64,000 bases of DNA from Spirochaetia bacterium (GTDB lineage: Bacteria > Spirochaetota > Spirochaetia > CADAEX01). Numbering within the stretch: position 1 is the stretch's first letter; every line of letters begins with the position of its first letter. The stretch spans positions 182 through 64,181 of the forward strand of contig JAFZIU010000077.1 in assembly GCA_017554185.1 (NCBI GenBank), written 5' to 3'. This document shows positions 13,444 to 21,826 of the stretch, in pieces. The position numbers and the translations under genes were made by a program. The notes beneath the pieces were generated by a model. It was not told where the DNA came from and did no database searches. It saw nothing but the letters and a program-made list of their open reading frames with translations.

Positions 13444-14289
13444 ATGACTGGACTGGTGATGGAAGGCGGAGCCATGCGGGGTATGTTCACCGCTGGTGTC
13501 TGCGATGTGCTTATGGAGCACGGCATAAAATTCGACGGTGCAATAGGTGTCTCGGCCGGCGCCACCTTTGGCTGCAACTACAAATCACATCAGATAGGCC
13601 GCGTGATACGGTACAACAAGCGTTTTGCCCGCAACTGGAGGTACTGCAGCCTCCGTTCCCTGTTCCTTACCGGCGACCTGTATGGCGCCGACTTCTGCTA
13701 CGACAAGATACCTAACCAGTTCGATCCTTTCGATTACGACACCTTTGCCAAAGACCCCATGCGCTTTTATGTGGTGGTCTCTGACTGCATGACCGGCGAG
13801 CCTATCTATAAAGAACTCAAAACTGGCCGAGGAACAGAGCTTACCTGGATGCGGGCCAGTGCCAGCATGCCATTAGTCTCCAGCGTGGTCAAAGTGGATG
13901 GCTACTGCCTTCTGGACGGAGGCATGACCGATTCCATCCCTCTAAAGAAGTTTCAGGAGATGGGATACGACAAGAACATTGTGATTTTGACACAGCCTAA
14001 AGATTTCATCAAAGAACCGGATTCCCTTCTGAAGCCTATGCGCCTTACACTGCATCGCTATCCCAAGCTGCTGGCAAAGATGGAGAACCGCCATGTCGAA
14101 TACAACCATCAGCATGATTATGCCTTCCAGCAGGAAAAAGAGGGGAAAGCCATAGTGATCTGCCCCGATAAGCCACTGGGAATATCACGCGTAGAGCATA
14201 ATCCAGACGAACTCCAGCGTTGCTATGACGCAGGCCGCCAGGTTGCAGAAACCCGTCTGGAAGAGATTAAAAAATTTCTGAATAACTAA
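13444..14289 (+). CDS. patatin-like phospholipase
   Basis: Gly-rich oxyanion hole (MEGGAMRG), nucleophile elbow GVSAG, Asp in DGG (LLDGGMTD). Confidence 0.8.
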   Translation: MTGLVMEGGAMRGMFTAGVCDVLMEHGIKFDGAIGVSAGATFGCNYKSHQIGRVIRYNKRFARNWRYCSLRSLFLTGDLYGADFCYDKIPNQFDPFDYDTFAKDPMRFYVVVSDCMTGEPIYKELKTGRGTELTWMRASASMPLVSSVVKVDGYCLLDGGMTDSIPLKKFQEMGYDKNIVILTQPKDFIKEPDSLLKPMRLTLHRYPKLLAKMENRHVEYNHQHDYAFQQEKEGKAIVICPDKPLGISRVEHNPDELQRCYDAGRQVAETRLEEIKKFLNN

Positions 14290-16444: not shown

Positions 16445-17041
16445 GTGAAAAAAGGAACCTGGGACGACGATTTTTATACCAAGAAGGCACAGAAGGAGGG
16501 CTACCCTGCCCGTTCTGTCTATAAACTGCAGGAGATTCAGCAGAAGTTCAGCGTGATAAAGAAGGATTTCAAGGTGCTGGATGTGGGGGCTGCCCCGGGA
16601 AGCTGGACCATGTACATCATGAAGATGCTGGGTGAGTCCGGATTTCTTTCGGCCATTGACCTTAAGCCGCTGAGCATAACTGTAAAGAACCCCAATTTTT
16701 TCTTTGTCCAGGGCGATGCTTTTGACCCCGAGAACATAAGAGTGCTGGCAGAGAAAGGGCCTTACAATGCGGTAGTAAGCGATGCTGCCCCCTCCACCAC
16801 CGGCAACAAGATAGTGGATACCGAGCGCTCAATCCAGCTGATTGAATCGATTTACAGCACTGCACTGCAGGTGCTTACCCCCGGCGGCAACTTTGTGTTC
16901 AAGATGTTCCAAGGGGGCAAGGAGAAAGAGATCCTTGATGATATGAAGAAGCACTTTAATGCGGTGAAGATACTTAAGCCGCAGGCTTCCCGCAGCAATT
17001 CCTTCGAAACGTTTGTGATAGGGCTGGGTAAGAAAGCTTAA
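16445..17041 (+). CDS. rlmE: 23S rRNA (uridine2552-2'-O)-methyltransferase RlmE/FtsJ
   Basis: SAM motif VLDVGAAPGSW, K-D-K-E catalytic residues. GTG start. Confidence 0.85.
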   Translation: MKKGTWDDDFYTKKAQKEGYPARSVYKLQEIQQKFSVIKKDFKVLDVGAAPGSWTMYIMKMLGESGFLSAIDLKPLSITVKNPNFFFVQGDAFDPENIRVLAEKGPYNAVVSDAAPSTTGNKIVDTERSIQLIESIYSTALQVLTPGGNFVFKMFQGGKEKEILDDMKKHFNAVKILKPQASRSNSFETFVIGLGKKA

Positions 17042-17502
17042 AGCAGGCCTTTACCACCCTTCCCGCCCAGGATCTTGCCCCCCGCGGCAAGACCCAAGGC
17101 AATGGCGGCCACGCCCACCACTGCCTTCAGGACCGTGTTCACCTGGCTCGACTCTTTAGTGCCGTATTTGCACCAGTGGGTGAAGTGCTCGCAGTTGTTG
17201 AATGCAATGTTGTACTCGCCATGGAGCTTGCCCACCATGGATTTGGCCCTCTCCACCACACGGTCCGGCGGGAAGGCGCCCGGCTCATCCGTCTCCTCCA
17301 CATAGAGCCCGCTGCCTTCAAGAAAGTCTGCAAGAGAAGTCTCGATTATCTTAGCTCTTTCGGCATCCAGCTCTATACCTATGCCGGCCGAATAGTGGAT
17401 GACCCGGCCGTTCCCAATGTAAATGCCATAGTGTTTGTATAATCCCCGGTCTGCCACAATCACATCGCCGGCCAGCGGAACTTTTTCTGTAATACTCTTC
17501 AT
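17038..17502 (-). CDS. LRAT/PLAAT-like NlpC/P60-superfamily protein with C-terminal Gly-rich membrane anchor
   Basis: His (KHYGIYIG) plus NCEHF catalytic Cys signature of the LRAT/H-rev107 family. Tail KAVVGVAAIALGLAAGGKILGG. GGAGG RBS. Confidence 0.65.
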   Translation of the reverse strand: MKSITEKVPLAGDVIVADRGLYKHYGIYIGNGRVIHYSAGIGIELDAERAKIIETSLADFLEGSGLYVEETDEPGAFPPDRVVERAKSMVGKLHGEYNIAFNNCEHFTHWCKYGTKESSQVNTVLKAVVGVAAIALGLAAGGKILGGKGGKGLL

Positions 17503-17525
17503 AATCTAAATATACCTCCGATAAT

Positions 17526-18179
17526 CTAAATCGCCAACGGGTTCTCAAGCAAATCTTCCATGGAGCATCCCAGCACCTTGGAAAGCCGGAACAGCGCATT
17601 CACCTGGGCTTTGTCTATGTTGTTCTTCCGCTGTTCATACATCTGGATAGAACGCAGACTCACCTCTGACCGCTCAGCAAGTTGTGACTGTGAAAGGCCG
17701 TTTGCCTCCCTGATCCTCTTAAGATGTGTCTCTGCTCCCAGCTTTGAGCACACCTGATCAAGCCGTTCGATGAACCGGGTTATATCCATCTCATGGTATA
17801 CCGGATACATCTTAATAATTTCTGAAAGAGAAATATGTTCAAAGATGTCCCTGAAACTCCGGGCACTGTACCACTGATACTCTGCCAACGCCCACCCAGC
17901 CCAGTACTCCGGCGATTTTGACAAGGAAAACTTAACTTTTTGGGGCAACTTCTTTCCCGGATAGAAGCGGGAAATAATCTCAGATGCCAGCTCATAACCA
18001 GACATCCCGGCAACCACCCGGGGATTGCCGCATTCAAAAAGCCTTGCATACTCTGAGTTGATAAAAAACCTGGCAAAGAGATCTGCCTCTATCCCGACCA
18101 TGTTTATGGCATAGTCAAAGGCGGTAGCCAGATGCTTTTTTGCATCACTTAAATAGTATTCGCTGTATGCGTGCATCAT
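17526..18179 (-). CDS. protein with uncharacterised N-terminal domain and C-terminal XRE-family HTH (antitoxin-like)
   Basis: C-terminal HTH_3 (LKRIREANGLSQSQLAERSEVSLRSIQMYEQ). ATG at 18179 preceded by AAGGAG (the track TTG start at 18188 is less likely). Overlaps the upstream DUF3990-like gene by about 35 nt. Confidence 0.6.
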   Translation of the reverse strand: MMHAYSEYYLSDAKKHLATAFDYAINMVGIEADLFARFFINSEYARLFECGNPRVVAGMSGYELASEIISRFYPGKKLPQKVKFSLSKSPEYWAGWALAEYQWYSARSFRDIFEHISLSEIIKMYPVYHEMDITRFIERLDQVCSKLGAETHLKRIREANGLSQSQLAERSEVSLRSIQMYEQRKNNIDKAQVNALFRLSKVLGCSMEDLLENPLAI

Positions 18180-18834
18180 TGTTATCAATCTCCTTTCGGA
18201 TAATATCCATCACAAACAGGTCATTTTTATACCTTGAGACCTTTTTCATCTCAAGCTTATACGCCTTCCGGGCCTCATCATCCCGCTTTTTAAATAGAGG
18301 AAAATATTCAGACTTATCCACCGGTTTGGCCTCTATAAAGCTGATTGCTTCAAAAGCTTTTTTGGAAATAAGAACAGTCTGTGAGCCAAGATGACCGAAA
18401 TATAGTGCGTGAGTCAGGCTTCTGAGCGGCAATCCGTTCTCCACAAAACTTTCTGCAAAAGCAAAGTAGGAATCATCTGCACGATAACCGGTCAAGACAT
18501 CATAGACCGATGTGTCCTCGCAGAAATGACTGATTATATAATCCTTTGCATTGACCGCAATCTCGTTGGAAAGAGAGAATTTCCTGTTCTTGAGCAACAG
18601 GGCAATCCAGTTGAGCACAGTATGATTCCCGTCCAGCTGATTCAGATGCTCAAGCCCGTCCAAAGGAAACTCATACATGTTCACAAAGCCATCAGTGCCA
18701 TTCTTGCATGCCCATTCCTGTGCCAGCTCATAGTCAAAGGTACAGTAAAATCCCCGGCCATAATCATTGTTAGGTTTGCCAAGGGCAAGCTGGGGTTCTT
18801 TTATTATGTGGTCAGATCCATGATACAAAATCAT
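18145..18834 (-). CDS. DUF3990-like protein (MILYHGSDHIIK N-terminus)
   Basis: N-terminal LYHGS motif is how DUF3990 proteins start. Family assignment is from memory. ATG at 18834; the track TTG is at 18840. Confidence 0.5.
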   Translation of the reverse strand: MILYHGSDHIIKEPQLALGKPNNDYGRGFYCTFDYELAQEWACKNGTDGFVNMYEFPLDGLEHLNQLDGNHTVLNWIALLLKNRKFSLSNEIAVNAKDYIISHFCEDTSVYDVLTGYRADDSYFAFAESFVENGLPLRSLTHALYFGHLGSQTVLISKKAFEAISFIEAKPVDKSEYFPLFKKRDDEARKAYKLEMKKVSRYKNDLFVMDIIRKEIDNNDARIQRILFK

Positions 18835-18841
18835 GGTCAAA

Positions 18842-18863
18842 TTATATCATTACAATGATATAA
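18842..18863 (-). promoter_or_regulatory. perfect palindrome TTATATCATT-AC-AATGATATAA ending 8 nt upstream of the DUF3990-like start; candidate operator for the downstream HTH protein
   Basis: 10-bp perfect inverted arms with a 2-bp spacer. The minus-strand reading contains TATAAT. Confidence 0.45.
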
Positions 18864-18865
18864 AA

Positions 18866-19945
18866 TCAAGCATTAAGTTGACTTATCAAAAATGAGCGGC
18901 AGTAGTCCACCAGCTGTCGACGCCTGCCCCAGGCCCGGCGGAAATTGGCAGGATCAATCAGCCTTATATGCTTGGTGATATTGTTCTCCTGAAACTGCCA
19001 ACCATGGTATTCGGCCAGTTTAGACCAGAACACCTCGCCTCCGGCGGTGGGCAGATCGATGTTGAAATATCCCTGTATTTCCTTAAGATGCTCAGGATGC
19101 GCAGAGATCACCTCCAGAGTCCTCTGAAGGATTGCCTCGTCATCCATGGCATTTATCTTCTTAGCTCTGGCCCCGCTAAAGCTGAAATTAAAGTATCCCT
19201 TCAATGTCTTCAGGAGCGGGGCAAACCGCTTCCTGCAATCATCATACCCCAGCTTCATCCGCCGCTCGGCTCCCTTGGAAGAAAAGTCCAGCACGCCGAA
19301 CCAGTTATCCCCAAGATTGACAGTAGGATGAATCACGATTGTATTGATTCCCAAACCAGAATAGTCAACGTGGTAACTCCGCTTCAGGTTCACCACAATT
19401 GCATCGGTGCACCCCTCTTCCACAAGGGGTCCTATAGGGACCTCATCGCCCCAGCCGCCATCGATATAATGACTGCCAAAAATCTTCTCACCCTGGAACA
19501 CAATGGGAATTGCGCTGGTGGCACATAGAATCTGCTCCGCCATTTCTTTATCATAATTGTTCAAACAGAAACTCTCGGTCTTATGGGTGTCGGTATTTAG
19601 ACAGGTTGCATACAATTTTTTCTTGAGGGTAGGCAGCCTGCTGAAATCCAACTGCTCCATGATTCTATAAAGCCCTTCCCTGCTGAAGATAGCCCCAGAC
19701 CTCTTGGTGGGAGACTTGAAATCCAGGATATTGCTTTCAAGCTGGGTAGTCCATATATCTACAGCGGTATCGAAATCGCAGAGTGTCAACAAAATAGCAT
19801 TCAGCGCCCCTACCGAGGATCCTGAGATCACTGATATTTTCTTGGTCAGCCCTATCTCGGCCAGGTACTTCCAGACGCCCAGCTCATATGCGCCTTTTCC
19901 ACCGCCGCCTGCCAGAACCAGCCCTATTTTATGTTTGAAAAACAT
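18866..19945 (-). CDS. patatin-like phospholipase (359 aa, with C-terminal extension of about 130 aa)
   Basis: LVLAGGGGKGAY oxyanion loop, GSSVG nucleophile, IDGG Asp. ATG at 19945 preceded by GGAGG (the track start 19963 is less likely). Overlaps the 3' end of the Fic gene by 22 nt. Confidence 0.8.
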   Translation of the reverse strand: MFFKHKIGLVLAGGGGKGAYELGVWKYLAEIGLTKKISVISGSSVGALNAILLTLCDFDTAVDIWTTQLESNILDFKSPTKRSGAIFSREGLYRIMEQLDFSRLPTLKKKLYATCLNTDTHKTESFCLNNYDKEMAEQILCATSAIPIVFQGEKIFGSHYIDGGWGDEVPIGPLVEEGCTDAIVVNLKRSYHVDYSGLGINTIVIHPTVNLGDNWFGVLDFSSKGAERRMKLGYDDCRKRFAPLLKTLKGYFNFSFSGARAKKINAMDDEAILQRTLEVISAHPEHLKEIQGYFNIDLPTAGGEVFWSKLAEYHGWQFQENNITKHIRLIDPANFRRAWGRRRQLVDYCRSFLISQLNA

Positions 19946-20802
19946 GATTGTGCCTCCAGACAAGTCTCTCGTAGGAATCCCCGCTCATAGTTCCATTCCT
20001 TAAGTCCACGGTAGTAAAACCACTTGAGTTCTTCGGTGATGATAATCGGTTTAATATTGTACTTCAAGCACTCCTTGAACATGATAAGACGCCCCACCCG
20101 ACCGTTGCCATCCTGGAATGGATGAATACGCTCAAACTGAACATGGAAATCCAAGATATCATCCAAGGTCACGGTTTTCTTTGCATTATACTCGGCAAGG
20201 AGAGCCTTGATCCTGGGCTTAACACTCTCGGGACTGGCTGTATCCATACCCCCTACCTCGTTCTCTAAAAGCTTATAATCTCCAACTTTGAACCAAGTCT
20301 TCCTGGAATCGGAGGTACCGCTCTTGAGAATAAAATGAAGCTGTTTGATAAAGCTTTCGGTAAGTTTTGACTTAGCCCCCTCAATAGCCAGATCCACACA
20401 CCGAAAATGATTCACTGTCTCAACTATATCGTCCACATTGACGCTTTTATCTGTAATTCCTATGGTGTTAGTCTCGAAGATATAGCGGGTCTGCTCCGGG
20501 GTAAGCCGTGAGCCTTCTATATGGTTGGAGTTATAGGTAAGCTCTATCTGAACCCGATGGTACAGCCCACCTTTAAGCCCGGCTTCCTTTTCCCTCTTAA
20601 GCTGCTCAAGGATAGTCTCGTTCTTTTTCTTGGAGTGACGTATCTGCCGTTTTGGCTTAGAAGACCTAGATGGTACTTTCCAAGTCTTGCCCTCCAAAAT
20701 GGCACCTGGCACACGTCCGGCATTGCAGTAGTTCCGCACACTCCGCTCCGAGACCTGCCAGGCTTTGGCTATATCTGTCACTTGCCAATAATCTACGCTC
20801 AT
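19924..20802 (-). CDS. Fic/Doc family protein with N-terminal HTH and class-II-type inhibitory motif
   Basis: Fic motif HPFQDGNGRVGR. SNHIEG matches the (S/T)xxxE(G/N) inhibitory helix. N-terminal MerR/excisionase-like HTH (MSVDYWQVTDIAKAWQVSERSVRNY). ATG at 20802. Confidence 0.85.
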   Translation of the reverse strand: MSVDYWQVTDIAKAWQVSERSVRNYCNAGRVPGAILEGKTWKVPSRSSKPKRQIRHSKKKNETILEQLKREKEAGLKGGLYHRVQIELTYNSNHIEGSRLTPEQTRYIFETNTIGITDKSVNVDDIVETVNHFRCVDLAIEGAKSKLTESFIKQLHFILKSGTSDSRKTWFKVGDYKLLENEVGGMDTASPESVKPRIKALLAEYNAKKTVTLDDILDFHVQFERIHPFQDGNGRVGRLIMFKECLKYNIKPIIITEELKWFYYRGLKEWNYERGFLRETCLEAQSCFSNIK

Positions 20803-20820
20803 AGTAAGAATATAGCATAA

Positions 20821-20879
20821 TATCGGCAAAATATAAAGCACTTTTTTATTAAAATAACTCTATTTATATATTGCCGATA
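20821..20879 (-). promoter_or_regulatory. 15-bp imperfect inverted repeat (TATCGGCAAAATATA ... TATATATTGCCGATA, 14/15) in the AT-rich region upstream of the Fic gene
   Basis: Seen in sequence. About 29-nt spacer. Lies between the dapA terminator and the Fic start. Confidence 0.3.
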
Positions 20880-20893
20880 AAATCCGATAAGGA

Positions 20894-20928
20894 CAAAAAA
20901 ATCACCCCAGGAAAGCACCCGGGGTGAC
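20894..20928 (-). terminator. rho-independent terminator after dapA (tcaccccgggtgctttcctggggtga plus U8 on the minus strand)
   Basis: GC-rich 9-bp stem and a poly-U tail. Confidence 0.65.
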
Positions 20929-20950
20929 GAAATAGCGTAAAGCGATAACC

Positions 20951-21826
20951 TTACAGTCCAAGCTTTGCCATTGCAGCGTCCATCTGAGCCTTTACAGCAG
21001 CAGAGGTCTCGCACAGAGGCAGGCGGTAAGCTTCCTGGATCATGCCGGCCTTGGCCATAGCATACTTGATAGGAACCGGGTTTGTGTCGGCAAACTCTGC
21101 TCTGAAGAACGGGAGCAGCTTGTAGTGGAGTGCCTTAGCCTCTTCCAGCTTGCCAGCCAGTGCTGCGTTGCACAGTGCATTCATCTCTCTTGGGATAAGG
21201 TTGGATGCTACAGATACAATTCCCTTTCCGCCCATTGCAATAAGGAGGAAGCCCAGGTTGTCGTCGCCGGAGAGCACTGTGAATGTGTCTGGCTTTGCAG
21301 CGATAAGGTTCATCATCTGGTTTACGTCGCCGCTTGCTTCCTTTACAGCCTGGATATTTGGATGCTGAGCCAGTCTGAGCATAGTTGCGTTGTCGATGTT
21401 CTTTCCTGTTCTTCCAGGGATGTTGTATACAACCATCGGAATGTCAACTGCATCTGCGATTGTCATGAAGTGGCGGTAGAAGCCCTCCATGCTAGGCTTG
21501 TTGTAGTAAGGTGCAACCTGCAGTGTGGCATCTACGCCGTAGCTTGCTGCAATCTTGGTCATGTGGAGTGCCTCGGCTGTGCTGTTGGAGCCTGCGCCTG
21601 CGATAATCTGGCAGCGGCCTGCAACCTGACGTGCTACAAACTCGATGATCTTAAGGTGATCCTCGTGGATGATTGTAGGGCTTTCGCCTGTGGTGCCCAT
21701 AGGTGCGATTCCGGCAACTCCGGATTCCACCTGGAAGTCAACCAGTGCCTTGAGAGCGCCCCAGTCAATTGATTCGTCCTTATTGAATGGTGTGATAAGG
21801 GCGGTGTATATTCCTTCAAACTTCAT
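20951..21826 (-). CDS. dapA: 4-hydroxy-tetrahydrodipicolinate synthase
   Basis: DapA N-terminus GIYTALITPF and TIM-barrel motifs (GTTGE). Confidence 0.9.
   Translation of the reverse strand: MKFEGIYTALITPFNKDESIDWGALKALVDFQVESGVAGIAPMGTTGESPTIIHEDHLKIIEFVARQVAGRCQIIAGAGSNSTAEALHMTKIAASYGVDATLQVAPYYNKPSMEGFYRHFMTIADAVDIPMVVYNIPGRTGKNIDNATMLRLAQHPNIQAVKEASGDVNQMMNLIAAKPDTFTVLSGDDNLGFLLIAMGGKGIVSVASNLIPREMNALCNAALAGKLEEAKALHYKLLPFFRAEFADTNPVPIKYAMAKAGMIQEAYRLPLCETSAAVKAQMDAAMAKLGL

Follow-up and report, generated by a model that had tools for sequence, protein, structure and literature searches.

In the MqsR/MqsA system the toxin gene stands first, and the antitoxin joins an N-terminal toxin-binding domain to a C-terminal helix-turn-helix (HTH) of the XRE type and represses its own synthesis at a palindrome. 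RES-Xre systems (ParST, MbcTA and the Xre-RES pair of P. putida) place the Xre gene first and carry the HTH at the N terminus of its product, whereas the cassette described here begins with a toxin-like gene and carries its HTH at the C terminus of the second product. The cassette lies on a 64,000-nucleotide stretch of the genome of a Spirochaetia bacterium (assembly GCA_017554185.1, contig JAFZIU010000077.1, positions 182 to 64,181), the whole of which is called the window below. Gene A encodes a DUF3990 protein, and gene B a helical domain fused to an XRE-type HTH. Evidence is presented that A and B probably form (at a probability of about 0.6) an autonomous, autorepressed, toxin-first operon of the type II toxin-antitoxin or abortive-infection type.

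Several relatives of gene A have been noted in other settings. Pfam assigns DUF3990 to the ADP-ribosyltransferase (ART) clan (PMC7955679), and the domain occurs as a variable C-terminal toxin domain of the Rhs proteins of type VI secretion systems in Serratia and Enterobacter (PMC4524185, PMC10763514, PMC12165300). In Serratia Rhs5 and Enterobacter RhsA, the same Pfam domain takes the position of the toxic tip, with a presumed immunity gene next to it (PMC4524185, PMC10763514). The PDC systems of PADLOC are 145 phage-defence candidates, predicted by 'guilt-by-embedding' from relatives of their genes that occur inside established defence systems (bioRxiv 10.1101/2024.01.29.577857), and three of them, PDC-M42, PDC-M13 and PDC-M10, bear on the present cassette. 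A literature search turned up no functional study of DUF3990, which agrees with a first-pass annotation of the window, made from the sequence, that had called the family functionally uncharacterised.

Genes A and B, together with the flanking patatin and LRAT genes, all lie on the minus strand (coordinates throughout are positions in the window). The open reading frame (ORF) of gene A covers 18145-18840 (-) if read from a TTG at 18840; read from the ATG at 18834 it covers 18145-18834 (-) and encodes 229 amino acids (aa), identical to an NCBI protein of a Spirochaetia bacterium metagenome-assembled genome (P0121). The product of the shorter frame begins with MILYHGS, as do its homologues, and ATG 18834, not the TTG, is very probably the true start. 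Gene B occupies 17526-18179 (-) and encodes 217 aa from an ATG, with the N terminus MMHAY found in its homologues. A Shine-Dalgarno sequence (AAGGAG) lies within gene A, 10 nt ahead of the ATG of B. The first-pass annotation had the toxin-like gene first, as in mqsRA, and an overlap of about 35 nt; the layout bears out the order, and the overlap is exactly 35 nt (18145-18179). The span that it gave to the pair, 18145-18863, has to be corrected, for it excludes gene B, which extends to 17526. RefSeq names the two products 'DUF3990 domain-containing protein' and 'helix-turn-helix transcriptional regulator'.

The product of gene A matches the Pfam DUF3990 model (PF13151) over positions 1-152 of 152, with a score of 140.2 bits (gathering threshold, 32.2) and an expectation value (E) of 5.5e-41, so that its earlier designation as DUF3990-like can be made definite. 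It has an ART fold: its AlphaFold model, built with 25 sequences (predicted local distance difference test (pLDDT), 79.9), contains the ART beta-sandwich, and a Foldseek search against viral models found ART-PolyVal domains. The solved folds nearest to A are those of toxins, and the link to RES-Xre is one of fold similarity only. A sequence search for solved structures of A returned none. The residues H5, G6, P14, D24, G26, G28, F29, Y30 and T32 are invariant in an alignment of DUF3990 subtypes with only 27-63% identity to A, as are A38, W41, W76, R84, D112, G116, A119 and Q152. The predicted sites of contact with nicotinamide adenine dinucleotide (NAD) are H5-G6-S7, G26-x-G28-F29-Y30 and W41. 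Alignment of the DUF3990 profile with a PARP1 fragment entered by hand paired H5-G-S with H862-G-S, G-x-G-F-Y30 with G-K-G-I-Y896 and W41 with Y907 (E 2.6e-4, 42% probability), which is a lead rather than proof. D112, invariant and located just before strand 5, is a candidate for the catalytic acid by position only. A DUF3990 protein of ART fold with a conserved NAD-pocket signature is strongly supported by these data.

Two parts of A lie outside the common DUF3990 core. An internal insertion and a C-terminal extension of about 57 aa were found only in M42-type DUF3990 proteins that are paired with a B-type partner, and DUF3791-type systems have DUF3990 proteins without the extension. In the AlphaFold model the extension forms long helices of low pLDDT (50-65). 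Because the extension occurs only with B-type partners, it may contact B, although this is speculation from the distribution of the sequences.

Gene B encodes a protein of two parts, and its description as a new helical domain joined to an XRE HTH is strongly supported. Residues 153-210 of 217 match the HTH_3 model above its gathering score (E 2.8e-10) and have the five-helix fold, which places the protein in the XRE/Cro-C1 group and verifies the C-terminal XRE HTH that had been proposed for it. The N-terminal domain (aa 1-145) is all-helical. No Pfam family matched aa 1-150 of B at E <= 10 or the same domain in 34 diverse members of the B family at E <= 0.01, and a sequence search found no solved structure for it; its sole family match was to the PADLOC model PDC-M42B (aa 5-141, E 8.8e-7). 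With a profile of the domain, 1699 representatives at the 50% identity level were retrieved, and 1108 of these lay below 1e-10. Among the best 150 representatives, 92 have the length of an HTH fusion and 28 are of 140-170 aa, too short to hold an HTH. An HTH-less version also stands beside a DUF3990 gene in T. saccharophilum, in the prototype arrangement of PDC-M42. Since the N-terminal domain stays beside DUF3990 even without the HTH, it is this domain, rather than DNA binding, that is tied to A. On a metagenome contig (1422-2038 of locus L095), two ORFs (153 and 37 aa) stand in place of an intact B, so that the N-terminal domain is retained and the HTH lost; either an assembly error or a natural derivative without an HTH may account for this.

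Other assignments of the N-terminal domain were examined and discarded. The second protein had been thought to belong to DUF3791 (PF12668), yet the Pfam scans for it were empty, and hhalign gave a probability of 1.9% against a profile of 104 DUF3791 sequences and of less than 1% with single sequences. There was no similarity to the small third protein of DUF3791 systems. A degenerate second HTH was also considered; nine columns could be aligned ('GmSGxELA'/'GlSQsELA'), at a probability of 0.3%.

The region ahead of gene A contains a perfect palindrome, TTATATCATT-AC-AATGATATAA, whose arms are 100% complementary; it reads TTATATCATT-GT-AATGATATAA on the minus strand and is designated operator O1. 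Its nearest base lies 8 nt ahead of the A of ATG 18834, with seven bases between, in the position that the first-pass annotation had reported. A scan for sigma-70-like promoters across 4.1 kb (16900-21000) placed its top site at 18869 to 18841 (-). This site, TTGATT-17-TGATATAAT, matches the consensus at 10 of 12 bases and has a TG extension. The palindrome fills the spacer of this promoter and covers all but one base of the six in the -10 box, and thus takes a classic repressor position. The same scan revealed no internal promoter for B within A on the minus strand. When arms of 10 nt or more and a loop of 4 nt or less are required, the window has just two perfect palindromes, against a mean of 0.2 in first-order Markov simulations; the conservation of the operator in other genomes, described below, is far stronger evidence than this rarity. 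The other of the two, at 1627-1650, is GC-rich (AAAAGTCCCC-GCAA-GGGGACTTTT) and resembles the hairpin of an intrinsic terminator.

A one-genome-per-species scan gave 80 loci (L001-L080) from other species, mostly of Bacillota, with some from Spirochaetota and Actinomycetota. A homologue of B follows A directly, with an overlap of about 20-35 nt, in 79 of the 80, and the remaining locus runs off its contig; a conserved two-gene A-B operon is thus strongly supported by gene order. A search for TATCATN4ATGATA, with up to two mismatches and within 120 nt upstream of A, succeeded in 70 of the 80 loci as compared to 87 of 4395 control windows (2%). Two sites are present in 44 loci, and in 31 of these 44 they are exactly 27 bp apart. 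One site of such a pair occupies the spacer between the -10 box and a TTGACA-like -35 box, and its 3' arm enters TATAAT; the other falls between the -10 box and the ribosome-binding site GGAGG. A spacing of 27 bp corresponds to about 2.6 helical turns and would set two dimers of B on different sides of the double helix.

In divergent loci, different palindromes occur at the same place, and the recognition helix of B differs accordingly. The half-site TATCAT is accompanied by the helix S/K/N-LR-S/N-IQMYEQ (for example SLRSIQMYEQ), TATCGT by ALRMIQLYEQ and TAATAC by SLNTIRAYER; the operator AATACCCCCAATTGGGTGTATT is accompanied by SISQLQRLEY, and GTACAC...GTGTAC by SVRIIQKYEQ. Collinsella carries two TATCAC...GTGATA sites. 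T. saccharophilum, the sole locus examined in which B is HTH-less, has no such palindrome beside A. A conserved putative operator that lies inside the promoter and co-varies with the HTH is therefore strongly supported. The earlier suggestion of autoregulation at the palindrome gains from all three lines, namely the position within the promoter, the recurrence in 70 of 80 loci (controls, 2%), and the co-variation of half-site and recognition helix; these provide strong indirect evidence that the HTH of B binds the palindrome, from which we infer that B represses its own promoter.

Compared with the described systems, the cassette most resembles PDC-M42, which has the same order, a DUF3990 gene with a C-terminal extension followed by a gene for a helical partner. 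The product of gene A matches PDC-M42A over nearly the whole model (E 2.5e-37), and the two genes stand adjacent and in the order of PDC-M42, as judged by E-values rather than by PADLOC calling thresholds, with a weak match for B. The pair on plasmid pTS1 of T. saccharophilum matches PDC-M42A and PDC-M42B at E 3e-109 and 3e-51, respectively, and its HTH-less partner of 142 aa aligns with the N-terminal domain of B over 131 columns. The cassette differs in that B adds a C-terminal XRE HTH, with a matching palindromic operator, to what is in PDC-M42B a model of 138 positions without an HTH. PDC-M42 is itself a candidate system only.

The other likenesses are more distant. RES-Xre systems are related to the cassette in the fold of the toxin, but A is a DUF3990 protein with a His-Tyr pocket rather than a RES motif, and the toxin-binding domain of the cassette is unrelated and belongs to no Pfam family. 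Neither A nor B matches the RES or DUF2384 families of Pfam, and the Xre_ParS model NF049845 gave 17.7 bits against a cut-off of 90. With MqsR/MqsA the cassette shares the toxin-first order and the C-terminal XRE HTH of the partner. The MqsA-style arrangement proposed in the first-pass annotation holds as an analogy of layout but not as a relationship: B lacks the zinc-binding CxxC motifs and has only isolated cysteines in its N-terminal domain, its score with the MqsA model TIGR03830, for which 61.8 bits is the cut-off, is 25.5 bits and comes from the HTH only, and A has an ART fold instead of being an RNase of the MqsR/RelE type. Triads of DUF3791, DUF3990 and a small protein (PDC-M13 and PDC-M10) occur on plasmids of Clostridium botulinum, C. 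tetani and Bacteroides, and their DUF3990 core keeps H5, G6, Y30, W41, R84, D112 and Q152 invariant. These triads have three genes, with DUF3791 first, DUF3990 second and the small protein third, and no HTH partner; their DUF3990 proteins, of about 160 aa, lack the insertion and the C-terminal extension of A, and the N-terminal domain of B has no detectable relation to DUF3791. On a B. fragilis plasmid, a gene annotated as DUF3791 (2055-2504 of locus L097; 149 aa) is an apparent fusion, its first half matching the PDC-M13C models, those of the small third protein of the PDC-M13 triads, and its second half matching DUF3791. The Rhs toxin domains, finally, are secreted as fusions to an Rhs core, whereas A is a free-standing cytoplasmic protein under predicted self-repression. 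On balance the cassette is best described as a toxin-antitoxin-like module of ART fold, an HTH-fused relative of the PDC-M42 candidate and a fold kin of RES-Xre.

A mechanism can be proposed from these features. Transcription would start from the strong sigma-70-type promoter TTGATT-17-TGATATAAT, and dimers of B, bound through the C-terminal XRE HTH to the palindrome in the spacer and -10 region, would block RNA polymerase. With its NAD pocket of the PARP/diphtheria-toxin type apparently intact, A would use NAD+ or ADP-ribosylate an essential target, and would be harmful when free. The N-terminal helical domain of B would bind and neutralise A; the adjacent, overlapping position of the genes, which is conserved, and the pairing of this domain with A independently of the HTH point indirectly to such a system. 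If B were lost or sequestered, for example upon phage infection or a shut-off of host expression, A would be freed and the operon derepressed. The most likely role of such a cassette would be phage defence or the stabilisation of mobile DNA.

The ratio of the two products may be set at the level of translation. The string TATAAT-TT(G/A)ACC-ATG is kept in eight close-relative loci, which represent two distinct upstream contexts, and no Shine-Dalgarno sequence precedes gene A in the window or in these eight loci. Because the last base of the -10 box lies 6 nt ahead of the ATG, the only alternative start, TTG (18840), abuts that box and a Shine-Dalgarno sequence is lacking, the mRNA of gene A is predicted to be leaderless in this spirochaete clade. 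A leaderless A and a Shine-Dalgarno-driven B would then bias the ratio towards an excess of B in this clade.

Several points weigh against the proposed toxin-antitoxin-like operon. Toxicity, NAD use, the A-B complex and DNA binding are each predicted. No glutamate of A aligns as the third catalytic residue, and it is uncertain whether an aspartate (D112) can serve there, which would be atypical for H-Y-E enzymes; the PARP1 fragment used in the alignment was entered by hand. The nearest PADLOC model matches B weakly (the E of 8.8e-7 given above). The leaderless start is argued from spacing, and a normal GGAGG ribosome-binding site is present in most homologues of other phyla. The enrichment of defence or mobile-element functions among flanking genes is also weak.

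The main rival explanation holds that B is a transcription factor that senses a ligand or signal, and that A is a benign NAD-dependent modifier under the control of B, for example an ADP-ribosyltransferase of small molecules or antibiotics such as Arr, or a regulator of a host protein, with no neutralisation at the protein level. The operator data fit this explanation equally well. A pure regulator, on the other hand, leaves unexplained why the N-terminal domain of B stands beside DUF3990 even where the HTH is missing. The overlap of the genes, the tight predicted autorepression, the small size and the patchy distribution among phyla are moreover typical of toxin-antitoxin or defence cassettes, DUF3990 serves as a toxin tip in Rhs proteins, and the nearest solved folds are toxins. 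We regard this explanation as unlikely, if still the most serious competitor of a toxin-antitoxin-like operon.

It is distinctly less probable that A and B work in this clade with the flanking patatin-like phospholipase, the LRAT/NlpC-P60 protein or both as one multi-gene defence system. Four close-relative loci (L081-L084) retain patatin, A, B and LRAT in this order, and LRAT follows B in two more (L086 and L087); the -35 box of A includes the stop codon of patatin, only 23 nt separate B from LRAT, and the patatin matches models of defence phospholipases weakly. Yet the 80 loci of other species yielded no homologue of patatin or LRAT. An unrelated gene replaces the patatin in L085-L088 (with an AbiEii pair further upstream in L085) and the promoter-A-B block is the same from the -35 box onwards, and LRAT is missing in L085. 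In close relatives whose upstream gene differs, identity sets in exactly with the -35 box; from there to the ATG the block is near-identical among them, with the -35 box, the palindrome arms and the -10 box unchanged and isolated bases differing.

The third explanation, that the palindrome acts as an RNA hairpin (a terminator or attenuator of the patatin gene, or a translational element) instead of a DNA operator, is rejected as highly improbable: although the palindrome comes directly past the stop codon of patatin and could be drawn as a hairpin, its stem is rich in AU, its loop is very short and a T-run is missing, its fold of -8.6 kcal/mol (z -1.08) is equalled or bettered by 25 of 200 shuffled sequences, no Rfam family matches above noise, and the motif is retained without an upstream patatin, often occurs twice at set places in the promoter and varies in step with the HTH.

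Features of the A-B cassette and its promoter (coordinates in the window)
Feature	Position	Strand	Remarks
-35 box TTGATT	18864..18869	-	Best promoter-like site; includes TGA stop of upstream patatin gene
Operator O1, palindrome	18842..18863	.	Fills promoter spacer; overlaps 5/6 bases of -10 box
Extended -10 element TGATATAAT	18841..18849	-	From promoter scan; last T 6 nt ahead of ATG
Gene A, ART-fold core, aa 1-172	18319..18834	-	DUF3990 protein
Gene A, conserved C-terminal helical extension, aa 173-229, stop included	18145..18318	-	From alignments; last 35 nt overlap B
Shine-Dalgarno AAGGAG for B	18190..18195	-	Read from sequence
Gene B, N-terminal all-helical domain, aa 1-145	17745..18179	-	Proposed A-binding (antitoxin) part
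Gene B, C-terminal XRE/Cro-type HTH, aa 153-210	17550..17723	-	Proposed operator-binding part
Gene B, C-terminal tail and stop codon	17526..17549	-	From ORF list

The cassette belongs to a variable islet between dapA (20951-21826) and rlmE (16445-17041), which in the window (17038-20841) contains Fic, patatin, A, B and LRAT/NlpC-P60. In close relatives (85-87% identical in A) the dapA-rlmE interval holds patatin only, with no Fic, or DUF6577 with AbiEii instead of patatin, as compared to Fic and patatin in the window. The Fic protein of the window matches the PADLOC model PDC-S04 (E 4.5e-104). The LRAT/NlpC-P60 protein (17038-17502 (-), E 1.4e-28), the gene for which begins 23 nt past the stop of B and follows B in most close relatives, has a glycine-rich hydrophobic C-terminal tail. 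No linkage of A and B to patatin, LRAT or Fic was found outside this clade, except for Fic near A in two related loci. In these two (L051, 2989-3807; L052, 1760-2578), a Fic-family gene 31% identical to that of the window lies just upstream of A-B on the opposite strand, which may be chance or a loose association.

A fixed defence-island context was not seen, and the neighbours are heterogeneous: 155 Pfam families were counted among 129 flanking proteins, and those of the mobile-element or defence type that recur are few (such as AAA_14/DUF4143, integrase, resolvase and N6_Mtase). A phage origin was rejected as well; A belongs to no PHROG family, and only six unannotated 'Bacteriophage sp.' faecal contigs carry a homologue. 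Two further features of the window were noted. An inverted repeat of 27 nt (20811-20837/20863-20889, 81% complementary) lies upstream of Fic and overlaps a promoter-like site at 20837-20809 (-), and is a possible regulatory site for HTH_17-Fic. A second ORF that resembles patatin by eye (281 aa, 13444-14289 (+)) stands some 4.5 kb away from the patatin gene next to A and B.

The pair is by no means confined to this spirochaete, since more than 4,500 clusters of A and about 1,700 representatives of the B domain were found, mostly in gut Bacillota. A bolder proposal, which we offer only tentatively, is that the DUF3990/B pair is a widespread abortive-infection system, in which an ART effector with an unusual His-Tyr-Asp site would act on a novel ART target, an antitoxin of a new helical fold would both inhibit the effector and sense a phage trigger, and the HTH would add transcriptional feedback. 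If the pair is a defence system, a PADLOC candidate would become a real system, and an abundant one among bacteria of the gut and rumen; should A prove non-toxic, the cassette would be an ordinary self-regulated operon. DUF3990 is a large family of the ART clan without a known activity, found in these cassettes and as the tips of Rhs toxins, and the cassette, with one promoter, one operator and two genes, offers a minimal and common test system for its activity, its target and the new inhibitor domain. Operators and recognition helices, which co-vary in pairs, form a natural specificity series for XRE repressors. The cassette does not represent a new principle, but it is well defined, abundant and tractable.

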